Shown: piece by piece, positions 5,024-56,525 of the stretch
How the letters are laid out: each line of letters begins with the position of its first letter
Numbering within the stretch: position 1 is the stretch's first letter
DNA from: a virus
Lineage: Duplodnaviria > Heunggongvirae > Uroviricota > Caudoviricetes
Reading direction: 5' to 3' (one strand)
Virus record (IMG/VR): IMGVR_UViG_3300017649_000004
Length of the DNA stretch: 64,000 nucleotides
The notes under the pieces: generated by a model
Database searches by the model: none
What the model was told of the DNA's origin: nothing
The model's input: the letters and a program-made list of their open reading frames with translations, nothing else
Position numbers and translations under genes: made by a program

Positions 5024-6093
5024 TGGCACTTCCCACTTCCGGCACCATTACGGCCGCAATGATCAATACGGAGCTGGGGCGAGCGGCCAACGCGGCGTTC
5101 AACCTGAACGATTCCGCAGTCCGCGCTCTGGCTGGGCGTCCGTCGGGCGCGATCAGTTTCTCGGATTTCTACGGCAAAGCCGCTGAGACGGTCCTCTACG
5201 CGCCGTCTAACTCGTTCGCCACCAACATCGCGGACATCTTCAATAACGCAGAGGCCGGTCTGTGGGCGTCGACCACGAAAAAGAAACGATTGATCGTCAA
5301 CCAAGCGGTCGGGCCTCTCGTCATCAACAGCGCCTTTGGTGCTGGGCTCACCATCGAGGTTACGTCGGCGGGTAGCATCAACGGTTTCGGCGGCGCAGCA
5401 AACAGCGGTGTCGGCGGAAACGCACTCAACATCACCACCGCGACAGGCATCACCCTCATCAACAACGGTGTCATCCGAGGCGGTGGCGGCGGCGGCGGTA
5501 AAGGCGGCAACGGGGGAACGGGAACGTTCAATATCTCGGAGCGGGTGCCGCCGTCAGGGGACTACCCCTACGGAACCGCGGCAGGCCAGGCTATGTGGAC
5601 TGTGCTATCGTCCTCGGAGCTCCGTTGGGATGGGGCACTTCTGGCGGGGTCGTTTGGCACTGGTGTGACGCAGATTACGGTCGGCGAGTGGACCTACCAC
5701 CGTAGCACTCTCGTTGCGACGCTACCCCCCGGCACCCTCCCGAACCAACCGTTTCCTGCCTTCAGATACGCCGTCTTTCGCACCCGCACTATCACCACGA
5801 CCTCGTCCGGAGGGGCTGGAGGCAACGGCGGTCGCGGCCAAGGCTGGGACGGCGCAGCAGCAGCCGGTGCAAACGGTGCGGCAGGCGGCACGAACGCTGG
5901 TGCGGGCGGCAAGGGCGGCAACGGCGGTGCCTATGGTAACGCAGGTGCTACCGGCGCGACCGGCGCATCGGGCAACGCTGGCGCTGGCGCGGCAGGCACG
6001 GCCGGTGGTGCCGCTGGTAAGGCAATCAACGGCTACAACCGTGTGTCCTACTCGGGATCGGGTAGTTTGCTCGGCGGAACTGCCAACACGTAA
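5023..6093 (+). CDS. glycine-rich fiber or tip protein
   Basis: 356 aa. The C-terminal third is a Gly/Ala/Asn-rich tract (GGAGGNGGRGQGWDGAAAAGANGAAGGTNAGAGGKGGNGG...). TAATG overlap with the tail fiber gene. Confidence 0.55.
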   Translation: MALPTSGTITAAMINTELGRAANAAFNLNDSAVRALAGRPSGAISFSDFYGKAAETVLYAPSNSFATNIADIFNNAEAGLWASTTKKKRLIVNQAVGPLVINSAFGAGLTIEVTSAGSINGFGGAANSGVGGNALNITTATGITLINNGVIRGGGGGGGKGGNGGTGTFNISERVPPSGDYPYGTAAGQAMWTVLSSSELRWDGALLAGSFGTGVTQITVGEWTYHRSTLVATLPPGTLPNQPFPAFRYAVFRTRTITTTSSGGAGGNGGRGQGWDGAAAAGANGAAGGTNAGAGGKGGNGGAYGNAGATGATGASGNAGAGAAGTAGGAAGKAINGYNRVSYSGSGSLLGGTANT

Positions 6094-7719: not shown

Positions 7720-7793
7720 CCCAAGCGAGAGCGCGCTATACGTCATAGCGCGCATTTTTCGCGTCTTATAGTGTAAGTAAGCGCATACTTAGG
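7720..7793 (+). promoter_or_regulatory. promoter-like CCCA-N10-CGCTATA box plus GTAAGTAAG-loop-ACTTA hairpin
   Basis: CCCAAG, then 10 nt, then GCGCGCTATA (also the terminator arm). CTTATA plus GTAAGTAAGCGCATACTTAGG ends 8 nt before the ATG at 7801. Confidence 0.45.
7731..7759 (+). terminator. rho-independent terminator
   Basis: Perfect palindrome GCGCGCTAT-acgtc-ATAGCGCGC followed by ATTTTTC, 12 nt after the stop of the 6988-7719 gene. Confidence 0.6.
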
Positions 7794-15737: not shown

Positions 15738-18086
15738 ATGAACCGTGAAATCGTAGAGCTCCGCGAAGTCATCACGAAGCTGGTGCCGCTGCTGGCTGGT
15801 CGTGGCCTCAAGGTCACGCAGCGTGGCAGCCAGGCTTACGTGAATGCTGATCCGGTCACGAAGAAGCCAGTGTCGGTCAACATTCCGAACATTTCGGACA
15901 ACGCATCGCCGGACTTCATCCGCGCGATCCAGGGCTTCATCGATCACGAAGTGGCTCATGTCCTCTACACGGACTGGAACCACTACTGCCGCGGTGCGTC
16001 TGCGGCAGATTTGAAGAAGCCGGAAGTGCAGCGCTTCATGAACACCCACAACATCGTGGAGGACACGATGATTGAGCGGCGCATGGTCGAGGACTTCCCC
16101 GGCTCAAGCCGCAATCTGTCGGACACGCGCCGCTACTTCCTTGAGCGCATCACCAAGAAGGCGCTCGAGACAGCCAAGAACGACAAGGAAGCGTTCATCT
16201 ACCTGCTCGTGCCGACCATGCGCGCGCTCGCTGGTCAGCAGGAGATGCAGGACTTCATGGATGACGGCGGCTACTGGAAGAACCCCTTCGTCAAGGGCGT
16301 GGTCGAAGGCTTGAAGCCTGACACCCTCCAGAAGCTCAAGAAGGCGCGCTCCACGATCGAGACGCTGGAGATTGCCGAAGAACTCCACGCAATTCTCTAT
16401 CCGCCGCAGCCTCCGGCACCACCCATGCCGTCGGCACCGTCCGACTGCGATGACGAGGGGCAGGACAGCGACAGCAGCTCCGGCAGCCCGAGCTCCTCGA
16501 AGAAGAGCAAGGACAAGCCCGAGAAGAAGGCTGACGAGGGTGATGGCGACGGTGAGCGCGATCACCAGGAGTCAGGCGAGGAGGGCACGTCCAAGGACAA
16601 GAAGGGCAAGAAGGACAAGTCGAAGAAGGACGACAAGTCCGACGAGGAGAAGGAGGAAGGCGCTGGCGACAAGGGCGATGACGAGGACGCCCGCGACGGC
16701 GAGGAAGACGAGGACGGCGAAGGCGGTGATGCCGGCGACGATGATGGCGAGTCTGACGCCGGTGACGAGGGCGAGGAGGAAGACGACGACAAGGGCAAAG
16801 ACAAGGGCTCTGACGGCGACGAGGAAGAAGGCGGAGACGACGAGGGCGAAGGCTCCGGCGGCGAAGGAGACGATGAGTCTGAGGACGCCGATGAAGGCGG
16901 CGATGATGAGAACGGTGAGGATGGCTCTGGAGCGCCCGGCAAGTCCGGCGACAAGGGCGGTGACTCCGACGAGGAAGGAAAGAAGAAGGCACCGGAAGTG
17001 ATCACCGAAGGTGCTGACGGTGGCGGCGTTGGTGAAATGAACGGCGACGACACCGAAAACTCTCCTGGTGGCGGCGTCAGCAACGACGAAGGTAAGAGCC
17101 TGTTCGACTTCGATGACGATGCCTTCGAAGAAGCGGACATGAGCAAGCAGATCGCGATCCTCATCTCCGACGAAGCCGTCGAAGCGATGGATCCTGCCGA
17201 ATACCTCGTCTACACGCGCGAGTTCGACCGGATCGAGCCCGTCAACGTGCCTGACAAGATGGATTCGACCTGGGTGCCGAAGATGGAAGAGGAAGTGCGT
17301 CTGACGAGCGGCCGCTTGCAGAAGGACATTGAGCGGATGCTCGCCTCGCAGTCGCACGTCATCCGCACGCCTGGTCACAAGAAGGGCAAGCTACATGCGC
17401 CTTCGCTCTATCGCGTGATGCAGGGCGATCCGCGCGTGTTCACGCAAAAGCAGGAGCATGTGTCGAAGGACACGGCAGTGACCCTTCTGTGCGACAACTC
17501 CGGCTCTATGGGCGGTGCCAAGATGAAGCTCGGCATGATTTCGTCCTACGCGCTGGCGGTCACGCTCGAACGGGTCAAGATCAGCTACGAAGTGCTCGGC
17601 TTCACCACCGGCAACTTCTCGCGCATTCCCAACTCGATCCTCGAAGCGATGCAGGACGAAGTGGCAAAGACCGGTCTGCGATACGATCGGATCGAGCCGA
17701 TCAACATGCCGATCTACAAGGACTTCGATGAGCGGCTCGATGCGCGCGTAAAGGCGAGGTTCGCTTACATGATGTTCGCGCAGCGCGGTCTGAACGGCAA
17801 CATCGACGGCGAGTCCCTCGAATATGCTGCCATGCGCCTGATGAAACGCCCTGAAAAGCGCAAGGTGATGATCGTGCTGTCTGATGGTCAGCCTGCCGGA
17901 TCCTGGCGCTCCGGGCCTCACCTCAAGACGGTGGTCGAGCGCCTCAACAAGACGGGCATCGAGACCGTCGGCATCGGCATCATGGATCGCTCCGTGGCGC
18001 GCTACTACGACAAGCATGTGGTCATCACCAAGCTCGACGACCTGCCGGGCAGCGTCATGGGCGAGTTGAAGCGCATTCTGACGTAA
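15738..18086 (+). CDS. cobT: CobT-like vWA-domain protein with a hyperacidic D/E/G-rich linker
   Basis: C-terminal vWA MIDAS motif 'LLCDNSGSMGG'. There is a ~250-aa acidic low-complexity tract in the middle. Partnered with the downstream CobS-like AAA+ gene. Confidence 0.75.
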   Translation: MNREIVELREVITKLVPLLAGRGLKVTQRGSQAYVNADPVTKKPVSVNIPNISDNASPDFIRAIQGFIDHEVAHVLYTDWNHYCRGASAADLKKPEVQRFMNTHNIVEDTMIERRMVEDFPGSSRNLSDTRRYFLERITKKALETAKNDKEAFIYLLVPTMRALAGQQEMQDFMDDGGYWKNPFVKGVVEGLKPDTLQKLKKARSTIETLEIAEELHAILYPPQPPAPPMPSAPSDCDDEGQDSDSSSGSPSSSKKSKDKPEKKADEGDGDGERDHQESGEEGTSKDKKGKKDKSKKDDKSDEEKEEGAGDKGDDEDARDGEEDEDGEGGDAGDDDGESDAGDEGEEEDDDKGKDKGSDGDEEEGGDDEGEGSGGEGDDESEDADEGGDDENGEDGSGAPGKSGDKGGDSDEEGKKKAPEVITEGADGGGVGEMNGDDTENSPGGGVSNDEGKSLFDFDDDAFEEADMSKQIAILISDEAVEAMDPAEYLVYTREFDRIEPVNVPDKMDSTWVPKMEEEVRLTSGRLQKDIERMLASQSHVIRTPGHKKGKLHAPSLYRVMQGDPRVFTQKQEHVSKDTAVTLLCDNSGSMGGAKMKLGMISSYALAVTLERVKISYEVLGFTTGNFSRIPNSILEAMQDEVAKTGLRYDRIEPINMPIYKDFDERLDARVKARFAYMMFAQRGLNGNIDGESLEYAAMRLMKRPEKRKVMIVLSDGQPAGSWRSGPHLKTVVERLNKTGIETVGIGIMDRSVARYYDKHVVITKLDDLPGSVMGELKRILT
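16440..17110 (+). repeat. GAC/GAG/GGC-rich low-complexity coding repeat (CobT acidic linker)
   Basis: Runs of gacgag/gaagac/ggcgat codons that produce long mirror ORFs on both strands. Confidence 0.6.
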
Positions 18087-19461: not shown

Positions 19462-20096
19462 TGCAGCAAGTGAAATACCGCGACCCGAAGGAGTCGAAGG
19501 CGCAGATCCGCGCCTTCGCCTACAAAGTTCTGCGGCGCATTCATGCACTGGGCGGCAAGACCACCTCGCTTGAGGACGTCGAGCAGGAGCTTTGGATTGC
19601 CTGGTGCAAGGCGTGCGAAGCCTATGACGAGAAGGGCGGCGCAAGCTTCAAGACCTTCCTGCACATCGGCATGGTGCGTCACATCAACCGCTACGTGCAG
19701 AACAACTTCGAGCGCCTGCACGGTGAAACGGTTGCGCTCTCGCTCGAAGCACCGATGGGTGACGATGACGGCGCAACGCTCGCTGAGGCTGTTCCTGACA
19801 CGGCCGAGCGTCAGGACACGAAGCTGATCGAGGAAGACGTCAAGGAGCGCGTGATGCGCCGGCTGACGCCTCGGGCACGTCAGTTCGTCCAGATCCTGCA
19901 CGACCAGCCGATCGAGCTGGTCCGGGAGCTGGACAAGTTCAAAGAGAAGCAAAAGGTCGCGCGCGAAGTCGGGGTTCAGTTCTCCGCTCCGCGCCGCCTC
20001 ACCAGCTGGATGGTTTTCGATCTCATGGGCGCCAGCCGCACGGAGCGCACGGCGATCATGCGCGAAATCGAAGCCGTCACAAGAAAGTTCGCCTGA
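19461..20096 (+). CDS. sigma-70 family (ECF-like) RNA polymerase sigma factor
   Basis: Region-2-like 'ELWIAWCKACEAYDEKGGASFKTFLHIGMVRHINRYV' and region-4-like 'LTPRARQFVQILHDQP'. Overlaps the cobS stop (TAATG). Confidence 0.6.
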   Translation: MQQVKYRDPKESKAQIRAFAYKVLRRIHALGGKTTSLEDVEQELWIAWCKACEAYDEKGGASFKTFLHIGMVRHINRYVQNNFERLHGETVALSLEAPMGDDDGATLAEAVPDTAERQDTKLIEEDVKERVMRRLTPRARQFVQILHDQPIELVRELDKFKEKQKVAREVGVQFSAPRRLTSWMVFDLMGASRTERTAIMREIEAVTRKFA

Positions 20097-24757: not shown

Positions 24758-24812
24758 GCATCCCATTTTATTTGACGCTATAAGTAAGTCAGCGCTTACT
24801 TATAGCGCATTC
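24758..24812 (+). promoter_or_regulatory. full promoter/5'-hairpin element
   Basis: GCATCCCA - N10 - CGCTATAAGTAAG - tcagcg - CTTACTTATAGCG (12-bp perfect stem), 17 nt upstream of the ATG at 24829. Confidence 0.55.
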
Positions 24813-24828
24813 GAAGGAACCTCTAACC

Positions 24829-25098
24829 ATGTCTCTTCTGGAACGCATCCTCGCCCTGTTTGGAATCGAACCGTCTATCGAGCGCATCACGCGTCCGATG
24901 GAAAAGATCGCTGCCAGGCTGGAGCGCTATGCAACTCAGCAGGAGTCGAAGGCTCAGGCTGATGAAAAGAGGGCTCGGCATCTCCTCGAGCGCTCGAACA
25001 GGGAGCTGGAACAGTCGGCGGAGGCTGCGGAGCTGGCTCAGCAATACCGGACCTTTGGTCCGCGCCGCCAGATGGCAGCTGGCATCCCGGCTGAATAA
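24829..25098 (+). CDS. hypothetical protein
   Basis: 89 aa. A hairpin promoter element lies upstream at 24758-24812. Confidence 0.45.
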   Translation: MSLLERILALFGIEPSIERITRPMEKIAARLERYATQQESKAQADEKRARHLLERSNRELEQSAEAAELAQQYRTFGPRRQMAAGIPAE

Positions 25099-25119
25099 TC
25101 CGACAGCATCCCAACACGA

Positions 25120-25214
25120 TCTAGCTATATAGCTACGTAGCTGCATAGCTAACTACGGACTTCGAAATCACCAAGCGCAAAGCACCAAAGCACTAAAGCA
25201 CGAAAGGCAAAGCA
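25120..25214 (+). promoter_or_regulatory. unusual leader of the SSB gene: TAGCTA palindrome cluster plus (AAAGCAC)5 tandem repeat
   Basis: TAGCTATATAGCTACGTAGCTGCATAGCTA (overlapping palindromes), then CAAAGCACCAAAGCACTAAAGCACGAAAGGCAAAGCA immediately before the ATG. Confidence 0.5.
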
Positions 25215-26261
25215 ATGGATTCTGCACTTCGCAAAATGGTATCGCAGGCTAAGGCCAAGTATGCCGGCAATGCTGGCAAGGCCATCAAGCCGAACGAAGG
25301 TCGCAACACCTATCGTATTCTCGCGCCGAAGAACGTTTCCTGGACTGGTCCGAACGGTGAGTTCTGGGCAGACCTTGGCGTTCACTGGATCAAGGCGGAA
25401 GAGAACGCGAAGCCGGCTGTTGTGATCGGCGACTGCGATACCGTCTACCAGCAGCCGTCGGTGATCAACACCGCCATCGAAATGGCGATCAACTCCGCCA
25501 TGGATGAGGAGAGCAAGAAGCTCTACGAAAGCTGGAAGGCGCGCAAGTCGGTGCTGCTGAACGTCATCGACCGTTCGAGCGGCAACGAGGAGATCCTCGA
25601 GCTGACCCCCTCCACCTGGGGTAAGGTTCTTGAGCTTATCGCTCTCCACCTGGACTTCGGTCAGGACATCACCGATCCGGAAAACGGCGTCGACATCATC
25701 ATCACGCGCACCGGCAAGGGTCTGAACACCAACTACGACGTCGCTGTGGCTCCGGGTAAGAGCCAGCCGGTCACTCCGGAGCAGCTCGCGCGCGCCAAGG
25801 ACTTGCAGGAGTTCATCCGCTCGAACTACTTCCGCGGTGAAGAGCAGAAGGCACTGAACGCGATCCAGCAGTTTGCCGGTATCTCGGTGCCGCGTCTTGC
25901 TGGTCCGGCAAATGCCGGCGCACTCGCTGGCCCGGCAGCAGCAACGCTTGCTCGCACTCCGACCGCTGCGCTTGCTTCGCCGAACGTTGCTGTCGCTGAC
26001 GCGGCTGTCGATGTTGAGGTTCCGACCACGGCGGCTCCCGCTGCAACTGTCTCCGCTGAGGAGCAGGCAGCTATGGATGAGGCTGCTCGTCGCCGCGAGG
26101 AGATTCTGCGTCGTCAGCAGGAAGCGGCTCGTGAACTGGAAGAGCTTGAGCGCCAGGCCGCAGCAACCGCCCAGCCGGCTGCTGCCGTTACTCCCGCATC
26201 CGCGAACGTGTCGGCCGATGATGCCGACGCAATCCTGAGGGAGCTCGAGGGTCTGGGCTAA
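25215..26261 (+). CDS. putative single-stranded DNA-binding protein (T4 gp32-like)
   Basis: 348 aa. It sits between dnaE and the FEN/recA genes. The N-terminal pattern 'KAIKPNEGRNTYRILAPKNVSWTGPNGEFWADLGVHWI' is reminiscent of the gp32 core. It has an Ala/Pro-rich linker and an acidic C-terminal tail. The 5' leader is unusual. Confidence 0.5.
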   Translation: MDSALRKMVSQAKAKYAGNAGKAIKPNEGRNTYRILAPKNVSWTGPNGEFWADLGVHWIKAEENAKPAVVIGDCDTVYQQPSVINTAIEMAINSAMDEESKKLYESWKARKSVLLNVIDRSSGNEEILELTPSTWGKVLELIALHLDFGQDITDPENGVDIIITRTGKGLNTNYDVAVAPGKSQPVTPEQLARAKDLQEFIRSNYFRGEEQKALNAIQQFAGISVPRLAGPANAGALAGPAAATLARTPTAALASPNVAVADAAVDVEVPTTAAPAATVSAEEQAAMDEAARRREEILRRQQEAARELEELERQAAATAQPAAAVTPASANVSADDADAILRELEGLG

Positions 26262-26271
26262 TCGAGAAGTA

Positions 26272-26363
26272 GTCTGACGCGTCCCCTCTCGCGTCAGACG
26301 CCCTCCGGTGTCGCGCCCGGAAGGCTAGGCGGCAGCGTGTTTCCTGTGCGCGCTGCCGCCCAT
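26272..26363 (+). terminator. two tandem GC-rich hairpins after the SSB gene
   Basis: GTCTGACGCG-tcccctct-CGCGTCAGAC and GGCGGCAGCG-N13-CGCTGCCGCC. There is no clean T-run. Confidence 0.35.
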
Positions 26364-37988: not shown

Positions 37989-38048
37989 GCATCCCAAGTC
38001 GCTGCGCGCTATATCGTAAGTATATGCTTACTAGCGCGTAGCGCACAG
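37989..38048 (+). promoter_or_regulatory. full promoter/5'-hairpin element (copy 1 of a duplicated ~60-nt leader)
   Basis: GCATCCCAAGTCGCTGCGCGCTATATCGTAAGTATATGCTTACTAGCGCGTAGCGCACAGGAGGATCAATG. Confidence 0.55.
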
Positions 38049-46664: not shown

Positions 46665-46904
46665 ATGACCGACGCGGACAACTGGCCGACATTCGCTGAG
46701 GAGCTCGGCAGGAAGACCTCTTCCGAGCTTGAGAAATGGACGGTCGCCTACGAGGCGGGAAAGATCACCTTACGGGAGTTCTACCTGATCGTGAGCACCC
46801 TCTACGACGCGACCAGTGGCCTGGCGCCGAGGGACATCAGCAACCTGCTCGCGGACGTCCATCAGTTCCTGCGAGTGAAGGCGAAAAGGAAGAAAGCCGC
46901 TTGA
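46665..46904 (+). CDS. hypothetical small protein
   Basis: 79-aa ORF. Confidence 0.4.
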   Translation: MTDADNWPTFAEELGRKTSSELEKWTVAYEAGKITLREFYLIVSTLYDATSGLAPRDISNLLADVHQFLRVKAKRKKAA

Positions 46905-56145: not shown

Positions 56146-56369
56146 TTGTGTTCCTGTTTTGTTCTCTCCGGAATAAATTCCTAGCTGCTTCGCTCGGCGC
56201 CGGCAACAGGATTCTCGACCCGCTCACAACCCGCGTCAGACCCAAGCTGACGCGCGCTATAAGTGACATGTGAGTAAGACGAGCAAAGGAGATAGCTAGA
56301 CGATTACATAGCTAGATAGCTATATCATGCTCCGATCTTCCGTTTCTGAAATTGCCTGGGAGCATGATG

Positions 56370-56525
56370 ATGACCAAAACAAACCCTGTAGCAAAAGCTC
56401 TCGCGAACCGTGCGCTGCATCAGCGCAAAGTCAAGCCGCGCAAGGGGCGCGGGAGCTACACCCGCAAGAACCAGAAAATCCCGGATGTTCCAGCCTGGTC
56501 GCGCATCGAGCCGCCGCCAGGATAG
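56370..56525 (+). CDS. small basic ORF with ArfA-like motif (tentative)
   Basis: About 52 aa, 'MTKTNPVAKALANRALHQRKVKPRKGRGSYTRKNQ...'. The KGRGSY-RK stretch recalls the ArfA ribosome-rescue motif. Confidence 0.2.
   Translation: MTKTNPVAKALANRALHQRKVKPRKGRGSYTRKNQKIPDVPAWSRIEPPPG

Follow-up and report, generated by a model that had tools for sequence, protein, structure and literature searches.

A TAGCTA box array and an open AAGCAC repeat leader precede the gene of a gp32-type single-stranded DNA-binding protein in a clade of phage-plasmid-like siphophages

To our knowledge, autogenous translational control of an SSB (a protein that binds single-stranded DNA) by way of an unstructured leader with repeats has been demonstrated by experiment only in T4-type phages. 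In the T4 gene 32 operator, about 28 nt form a folded element, and beyond it lie more than 40 nt of RNA that is less structured and holds several UUAAA/UAAA repeats and the ribosome binding site (RBS); both parts are required for repression, and the repeats are thought to add specificity (PMC535899, PMC3014915). RB49 keeps the leader repeats without the pseudoknot (PMC535899). The T4 gene 32 leader reads TTAAT TAAAT TAAAT TAAAAAGGAAATAAAA ATG at its end, and its last 50 nt have a minimum free energy (MFE) of −3.7. Short DNA boxes read by ribbon-helix-helix (RHH) proteins are known from the metbox arrays of MetJ and from the omega heptads of pSM19035. ParG, a comparable case, recognises degenerate 4-bp boxes set apart by regular 4-bp spacers, in either direct or inverted orientation; a single dimer occupies each box, and the protein represses the operon that encodes it (PMC3130281). 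In the phage-plasmid N15, dispersed Sop partition sites are reported to influence phage gene expression (Ravin, Rech & Lane 2008, cited in PMC11652158). Rhizobium siphophages of the V1VFA-S/RHEph10 type are also phage-plasmid-like, with parA, parB and repC; their genome announcement is silent on promoters and leaders (PMC12509600).

We analysed the leader of an SSB gene in a 64,000-nt stretch of viral DNA (IMG/VR record IMGVR_UViG_3300017649_000004), the whole of which is called the window below. The gene lies on the plus strand at 25215-26261 and encodes 348 aa. A first-pass annotation had named it a gp32-like SSB, and the family searches bore this out: the ORF scored 31.2 bits against Pfam PF08804 (curated cutoff 26.8, E 2.9e-7) and matched PHROG 1192 'single strand DNA binding protein' at 3e-44. 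The clade profile aligned with T4 gp32 in hhalign at a probability of 71.8% (E 3.5e-5, 187 columns). The top match in the PDB profile search was 1GPC, a weak one (E 0.13); similarity to T4 gp32 was not significant in BLASTP, and a single-sequence AlphaFold2 model was unusable (pLDDT 48). In the alignment His57 and Cys74 correspond to His64 and Cys77 of T4 gp32. The second Cys pair of the His-Cys3 Zn(II) site was absent from the SSB clade in this alignment; the nickie and BUCTxx99 homologs do have it. The acidic C-terminal tip DxDD[IL]Lx[ED]L aligns with that of T4 gp32, and the N-terminal segment ..AQAKAKYAGNAG resembles the T4 cooperativity segment ..AQMAKLNGNKG; a LAST motif, (K/R)3(S/T)2, was not evident in the alignment. 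Similarity to T4 gp32 at the sequence level is remote.

The SSB gene is part of a conserved replication cluster comprising a DnaE-like polymerase, two small genes, SSB, a 5'-3' exonuclease and RecA/UvsX. Its leader, 25099-25214, is intergenic and extends from the stop codon of the ORF at 24829-25098 to the SSB ATG at 25215. A GC-rich, terminator-like hairpin with a weak T-run follows the SSB stop codon at 26328-26360 on the plus strand, which suggests a monocistronic unit if the hairpin acts as a terminator. A sigma factor of the sigma-70 family is encoded in the window at 19479-20078.

The leader has the order …GCATCCCA acacgatc TAGCTA ta TAGCTA cg TAGCTG ca TAGCTA actacggacttcgaaatcac CAAGCGC AAAGCAC c AAAGCAC t AAAGCAC g AAAGGCA AAGCA ATG. 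At least 14 strongly conserved copies of a phage promoter, roughly gCATCCCA-N10/11-GCTATAAGT, are found in the window, usually with a GTAAG…CTTAC hairpin downstream and sometimes with ACGGAC after it. The first-pass annotation held that the SSB gene lacks this standard hairpin promoter element, which turned out to be incorrect, since both promoter boxes are present on the plus strand. The upstream box GCATCCCA (25106-25113) aligns with the TCCCA/ACCCA box of 11 window promoters and also precedes SSB in relatives, and the −10-like box GCTATATAG (25124-25132; consensus GCTATAAGT) is overlapped by the first two TAGCTA boxes. The resulting form, GCATCCCA-N10-GCTATA, matches at least 11 standard promoters in position. 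Only the downstream GTAAG/CTTAC hairpin is replaced: the TAGCTA boxes take its place, and ACGGAC then follows. With a position weight matrix (PWM) trained without the SSB site, the SSB promoter scored 8.5 bits, within the top 0.03% of positions, and canonical copies scored 22-32 bits. Its score being far below canonical, the promoter has in this genome been overwritten in part by the boxes; in relatives it is fully canonical. From the usual 7-nt distance after the −10 box, the start site was placed at about 25137-25139; a start near 25137 would give an mRNA leader of about 78 nt. Sites from an E. coli-type sigma-70 scan were rejected as the SSB promoter, being weak and without a match to the phage's own promoter.

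The boxes constitute an array of four 6-bp palindromes in an 8-bp register at 25122-25151, assigned to neither strand, with TAGCTA at 25122, 25130 and 25146 and TAGCTG at 25138. A second array at 56293-56322, likewise without a strand, has four slots in the same 8-bp register, the second of them degenerate; it lies 28 nt downstream of a standard promoter box (56256-56264) and is syntenic with the V1VFA-S array at 1443. All six TAGCTA sites of the window fall within these two arrays, and none of 200 Markov-1 simulations of 64 kb gave three copies within 32 nt.

Downstream of the boxes, three exact AAAGCAC units are located on the plus strand at 25179, 25187 and 25195 (25179-25201). They had been described as a perfect (AAAGCAC)5 repeat; the exact copies number three and are separated by one variable base (C, T or G), which gives a period of 8, not 7. 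TRF called 25178-25206 with period 8, 3.6 copies and 90% matches. Degenerate units flank the exact ones: CAAGCGC at 25172-25178, AAAGGCA at 25203-25209 and AAGCA at 25210-25214. The Shine-Dalgarno sequence (SD) GAAAGG, at 25202-25207 on the plus strand, lies inside the degenerate unit AAAGGCA, and the AAGCA unit stands between SD and ATG. The order of unit or units, SD-unit, unit and ATG is also present in relatives. The whole A/C-rich 5'UTR tract at 25157-25214 (plus strand) is unstructured, embeds the SD and ends at the AUG, and we propose it as a translational control region.

The AAAGCAC cluster is not a chance event, as 0 of 200 Markov-1 simulations (64 kb) gave three copies within 24 nt. 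A single AAAGCAC/AAGCAC cluster was found in the window and a single one in the 118-kb V1VFA-S genome, each at the SSB leader. Thus the uniqueness within the window asserted earlier held for the AAAGCAC cluster and failed for the TAGCTA cluster, of which 56293-56322 is a second instance; the repeat-bearing leader ahead of the SSB gene was itself real and non-random, while the earlier statements on copy number, period, uniqueness and promoter needed correction. In IMG/VR, 75 of the 80 matches listed for the AAGCAC×3 pattern were unrelated microsatellites or coding repeats, so that beyond the clade the motif carries no general significance; among the matches listed, none outside the clade was linked to SSB. 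Since the cluster occurs solely at SSB and the repeats elsewhere are unrelated, it is a cis-element that belongs to SSB alone and to this clade alone.

The phage is related to the Rhizobium siphophages V1VFA-S, B1VFA and RHph_X66, whose SSBs are about 61% identical to the one described here; RHEph10, RHph_N1_10 and Y2_11 are more distant, at about 50%. Twelve lineages were compared, made up of Rhizobium phage-plasmid-like siphophages and IMG/VR contigs with SSBs 50-69% identical. An equivalent repeat before SSB, which the first-pass annotation had suggested looking for in related phages, was found in all 12. Standard promoter, boxes, AAGCAC-type units, SD and ATG follow each other in the same order in every lineage (12/12). 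The leaders carry three to four hexamers at period 8, with a partial exception in lineage L011, and two to six (A)AAGCA(C) units, with the SD embedded among the units and usually one more unit before the ATG. Within the last 60 nt before the SSB ATG, AAGCA occurs 2-5 times per lineage against 0.07 expected. The spacing of the units was 7 nt, 8 nt or irregular up to about 16 nt.

This variable spacing fits reading as single-stranded RNA better than phased binding to double-stranded DNA. It bears on the idea that the repeat is an element of the DNA itself, either as iterons, an origin or unwinding element or a factor site, or else a neutral slippage microsatellite. A tandem repeat beside a promoter might be expected there, and T4 origins do consist of a promoter and a downstream unwinding element. 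However, spacings from 7 to about 16 nt are incompatible with phased double-stranded binding, the tract is merely 54% A+T, for which reason an origin or unwinding element was rejected, and its strand-asymmetric composition is conserved. A slipping microsatellite would agree poorly with a copy number that is stable among close relatives, with an SD embedded in the units and with a core conserved across lineages whose SSBs are about 50% identical. We regard a DNA-level or neutral origin of the repeat as highly improbable, and it is likely that the AAGCAC tract acts on translation at the RNA level.

The boxes have a different distribution from the repeat. In V1VFA-S, TAGCTA was observed 24 times against 6.0 expected, and only one of the six period-8 arrays is at SSB. 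Another abuts the start of the gene for a 215-aa ParA, and an 87-aa ORF comes after parA. In RHEph10 the hexamer is replaced by TAGCGA/TCGCTA at 5/5 arrays, in direct and inverted orientation and with the register unchanged, and similar degenerate boxes precede parA. In each of three genomes (the window, V1VFA-S and RHEph10), pairs of boxes lying within 40 nt of each other had spacings of 8, 16 or 24 nt and no others. In nine more relatives, all IMG/VR contigs, ATAGCTA/ATAG boxes in register run into the parA ATG. Some arrays lie upstream of promoters and some behind genes, and at parA they are on the opposite strand. The operator-like character that the first-pass annotation gave to the palindromes was therefore supported, and their specificity to SSB was not, the motif being genome-wide with arrays at parA; nor were there three overlapping palindromes at SSB, where four boxes stand at period 8. 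A regulon shared by SSB and ArfA was considered and rejected, as the ArfA-like ORF behind the second array has no homolog in V1VFA-S or RHEph10.

The 8-bp register and, in relatives, the location of an array directly upstream of an operon of parA and a small RHH gene are those of a ParG-type array. RHEph10 gp091, encoded downstream of parA, matched ParG (1P94) over the RHH domain with E 0.0017 as its sole match. V1VFAS_046 is a homolog of gp091 at 32% identity, and had no match of its own in Pfam, NCBIfam or PDB. The putative DNA-reading beta-strand has only two states, MTFNMP in 10/10 phages of the TAGCTA type and LNFKVD in RHEph10. Neither parA nor a ParG-like gene is present in the 64-kb window, so the reader protein for this genome is one that we infer. 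The boxes occur genome-wide, stand upstream of parA and switch to TAGCGA in RHEph10, which together indicate that they are probably a ParG-type operator. Judged from these sequence patterns, we favour a protein operator on balance, and the odds that its reader is specifically the ParG-like protein appear about even.

Alternatively, the boxes may act as RNA, as a 5' hairpin for mRNA stability or RNase III-type processing in place of the GTAAG/CTTAC hairpin. The array is placed exactly where other promoters have their hairpin, with the same ACGGAC behind it, and a 5' hairpin is predicted in every SSB leader; for the full array of the window it reaches −13.2 kcal/mol (z −2.0). In L011 one box is kept and most are swapped for an unrelated hairpin. 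Five of six variant units in the arrays of SSB leaders are A-to-G changes (TAGCTG four times, TGGCTA once) and thus G.U-compatible, which is weak evidence. However, the part of the array after the inferred start site gives only −3.9 kcal/mol (z −0.6) in the window. A hairpin requires neither one and the same hexamer across a genome nor a genome-wide switch to TAGCGA as in RHEph10, and would hardly account for arrays that precede promoters, follow genes or, at parA, occupy the opposite strand, or for a register of 8 bp that is kept even with an unrelated middle unit. A purpose as RNA hairpin is therefore unlikely to be what the boxes are for, though the two roles are compatible and not exclusive.

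The tract itself was confirmed as an unstructured CA-rich leader, as had been claimed. The segment 25157-25217 has an MFE of −3.2 kcal/mol against −6.9±2.2 for its own dinucleotide shuffles (z +1.67). As 197 of 200 shuffles folded at least as well, the order of the bases, beyond their composition, avoids structure. With 25 A, 14 C, 9 G and 2 T, the stretch 25165-25214 is among the least-structured 0.6% of 50-nt segments in the window. The first 108 nt of the predicted SSB transcript, whose MFE of −16.0 compares with −34.7±6.4 in window segments, fall within the least-structured 0.3%. Among real gene leaders in the window, that of SSB is the least structured, the most A-rich and the most T-poor. 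It is also long, at about 82 nt after the −10 box compared with 33-47 nt for other genes with standard promoters. From the inferred start site, a 5' hairpin formed by the boxes and a mostly open tract to the AUG were predicted in every lineage, with 41-70 nt between hairpin and ATG. A search of the leader against Rfam gave no family match.

Such a tract might be a pure translational enhancer or ribosome standby site that loads 30S subunits without any feedback from SSB. For the tract, this is the foremost competing explanation, given that CA-rich single strands can enhance translation potently: single-stranded CA tails and CA-rich or ACA elements strongly boost initiation (PMC5934652, PMC3879156). 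The extreme lack of structure and the stoichiometric amounts in which SSB is needed are in keeping with it. The AAAG of each unit resembles the start of the local SD GAAAGG, and the rhizobial 16S tail, which we take to be ...CCUCCUUUCU, may be complementary to the AAAG and SD units. In two Stenotrophomonas phages the gp32-like SSB is preceded by an open, CA-rich leader (MFE −2.5) that lacks repeats. On the other hand, the standby effect saturates at 16-18 nt (PMC5934652), while the tract is 41-70 nt in all lineages. In the two complete genomes no such cluster occurs at other genes, among them presumably highly expressed ones. In versions with period 8 the ACA/CA pattern is not conserved, and what is conserved is a specific AAGCA core instead of mere composition. 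An enhancer without feedback is on this evidence somewhat unlikely to be the whole function of the tract.

It is also conceivable that another factor recognises the tract at the RNA level, such as a GU-rich small RNA of host or phage, a RegA-like repressor or Rho, which would end transcription early at times of low translation. Having 14 C to 9 G and being unstructured, the tract resembles rut sites, in which C exceeds G and structure is absent. CA-rich enhancers are classic targets of small RNAs (PMC3879156). However, no complementary GTGCTT cluster was found elsewhere in the window or in V1VFA-S, by which a trans-encoded phage antisense RNA was rejected, and the leader holds no Rfam family. 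A regulator for a single gene would moreover be less parsimonious than the nucleic-acid-binding product of the SSB gene itself. Recognition by a further factor therefore seems very unlikely. An Hfq (ARN)n reading of the tract was also discarded, as the triplet phase is not maintained.

We thus propose a composite element, with a probability of about 0.45, in which a ParG-type operator on the promoter is combined with an open repeat tract that serves both as ribosome-loading site and as autogenous SSB lattice. That both modules are functional cis-elements is very likely. In the first module, which works on DNA, the four boxes overlap the −10 box and the presumed start site of SSB's own standard promoter and would be recognised by a small ParG-type RHH protein encoded beside parA outside the window. 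With a dimer on each box, the array would be coated and RNA polymerase kept out, which would tie SSB transcription to the plasmid-like or partition state. Once transcribed, the palindromes would form the 5' hairpin of the SSB mRNA. The second module works on RNA and is specific to SSB. Its structure-free A/C-rich tract of about 60 nt, from the hairpin across the SD to the AUG, would load ribosomes efficiently, as suits a protein required in stoichiometric amounts. Once free SSB is in excess over its ssDNA substrate, it would bind cooperatively along the open tract and cover the RBS, an autogenous translational repression like that of T4 gene 32.

That SSB itself is the repressor of its own leader is suggested by this analogy, and we hold it to be plausible at somewhat less than even odds. 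The binding of gp32 is largely sequence-independent, so lattice binding by itself does not account for a conserved AAGCA core. The site size of gp32 is about 7 nt. In a more elaborate version, each AAAGCAC unit would seat one SSB monomer and the ParG-like RHH protein would double as a global regulator that silences SSB, giving a two-layer switch with an independently evolved, sequence-tuned T4-like operator; this version we find unlikely.

What is new here is that an unrelated phage clade has a leader in the style of gene 32, built on a new repeat, together with a ParG-type box array. The design of the leader is T4-like and its repeat wholly different, and it is conserved in a clade of unrelated siphophages of GC-rich hosts. 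Pseudomonas and Stenotrophomonas phages also have repeat-bearing or open leaders before their gp32-like genes. In Nickievirus, the SSB leader starts from a long, conserved hairpin, after which come two to five TCGACA units and then the SD; the SSB leader of Bacillus SP-10 had nothing comparable. The same design in this clade and analogous leaders elsewhere suggest that leader-encoded control of SSB dosage is recurrent. The SSB leader offers a simple system in which enhancer and operator function can be separated and a testable case of self-regulation outside T4-like phages. A network of ParG-type boxes that extends to the promoter of a replication gene allows a concrete hypothesis on the way in which phage-plasmids may coordinate partition with lytic genes; if true, regulation of SSB by a partition protein would couple plasmid maintenance to the silencing of replication genes. 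In the poorly annotated genomes of this clade, annotation can further use the repeat, the boxes and the standard promoter as landmarks.

Unlike the N15 system, which involves type Ia SopAB and 16-bp palindromes, the boxes described here have an 8-bp register and would belong with a type Ib ParA/ParG-like pair; the likeness would be in partition-protein sites that are scattered over a phage-plasmid genome and affect its gene expression, here that of SSB. Like O_F/parH of TP228 ParG, they are short, degenerate, direct or inverted, in an 8-bp register, in arrays of two to five or more units, and located upstream of a small parA and an RHH gene, a likeness read from sequence. Unlike those of TP228, they are 6-bp TAGCTA palindromes (or ATAG half-boxes) instead of ACTC, and the short arrays are dispersed over a phage genome of about 120 kb, including the promoter of a replication gene. 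The tract resembles C/A-rich enhancers and standby tails in that C/A-rich, single-stranded RNA surrounds the RBS and immediately precedes it (PMC5934652, PMC3879156); unlike them, it is much longer than needed, has a defined unit of 7-8 nt instead of CA or ACA, and occurs at one gene per genome. Differences from T4 gene 32 are found in the repeat, which is AAAGCAC, A/C-rich and of period 7-8 here, and UUAAA, A/U-rich and of period 5 in T4. Instead of the T4 pseudoknot, the 5' element is a predicted hairpin, with no match in Rfam, of palindromic boxes that are also found away from SSB. The leader belongs to a siphophage with phage-plasmid features that infects a GC-rich alpha-proteobacterium, and its SSB, gp32-type by sequence, is no more than a remote relative in which half of the Zn site is missing. 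As in the T4 operator, several short repeats overlap the RBS (three exact and three degenerate units in the window, and repeats in the 12 lineages), and an unstructured region of more than 40 nt adjoins the fold (58-61 nt in the window). As in gene 32 of T4 and RB69, a gp32-type SSB gene has its own promoter, a 5' fold, and then an open tract of short repeats that leads into the SD and AUG.

At least 14 near-identical copies of the phage's own conserved promoter were found in the window, on the plus strand without exception. The family follows the pattern gCATCCCA-N10/11-GCTATAAGT, with GCTATA boxes starting at positions 7735, 10274, 14793, 24777, 28465, 29372, 33386, 38008, 38490, 41162, 41798, 51934, 56256 and 62965. 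Downstream of most of these promoters lies a GTAAG…CTTAC hairpin, and ACGGAC follows some of them. A phage sigma gene of the sigma-70 family is located at 19479-20078.

Individual copies showed features of their own. The −10 box of the promoter at 24777-24809, upstream of an ORF at 24829-25098, is located within a perfect 12-bp inverted repeat (GCTATAAGTAAG tcagcg CTTACTTATAGC) and can therefore be read on the minus strand as well, where no gene was apparent. The promoter-plus-hairpin copies at 38008 and 38490 are a nearly identical pair spaced by about 480 bp. Their shared sequence, GCTGCATCCCAAGTCGCTGCGCGCTATATCG taagtat…cttactagcgcg, suggests a local duplication.

Downstream of the second TAGCTA array (56293-56322), a small plus-strand ORF (MMMTKTNPVAKALANRALHQRKVKPRKGRGSYTRKNQK…) was located at 56364-56525. 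Its product resembles the alternative ribosome-rescue factor ArfA (Pfam PF03889, 24.4 bits, slightly below the cutoff of 25.5), and a homolog was absent from V1VFA-S and RHEph10, the related Rhizobium siphophages. In V1VFA-S, a perfect array of three TAGCTA boxes lies directly 3' of the last head/neck gene (46746-46768), preceded by a GC hairpin and followed by a T-run in a terminator-like placement, which shows that gene ends are a further location of these boxes.

Other repeats were also observed. A long T-poor coding stretch at 16480-16998 contains 9-nt repeats (AAGGACAAG and similar) and presumably encodes a Lys/Asp/Glu-rich low-complexity protein segment. A perfect (AAAGCAC)5 repeat followed by aaaattATG, as found on the minus strand of the unrelated AT-rich giant-virus MAG contig GVMAG-S-1101169-93 (~5996-6030 in oriented coordinates), is probably a coincidental microsatellite.

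Repeat-bearing leaders precede gp32-like SSB genes in Nickievirus too. The leaders of Pseudomonas phage nickie (370-519) and of the Nickievirus loci L130, L131 and L132 contain a conserved long hairpin and then 2-5 TCGACA units upstream of the SD, arranged with a period of 8 in nickie.
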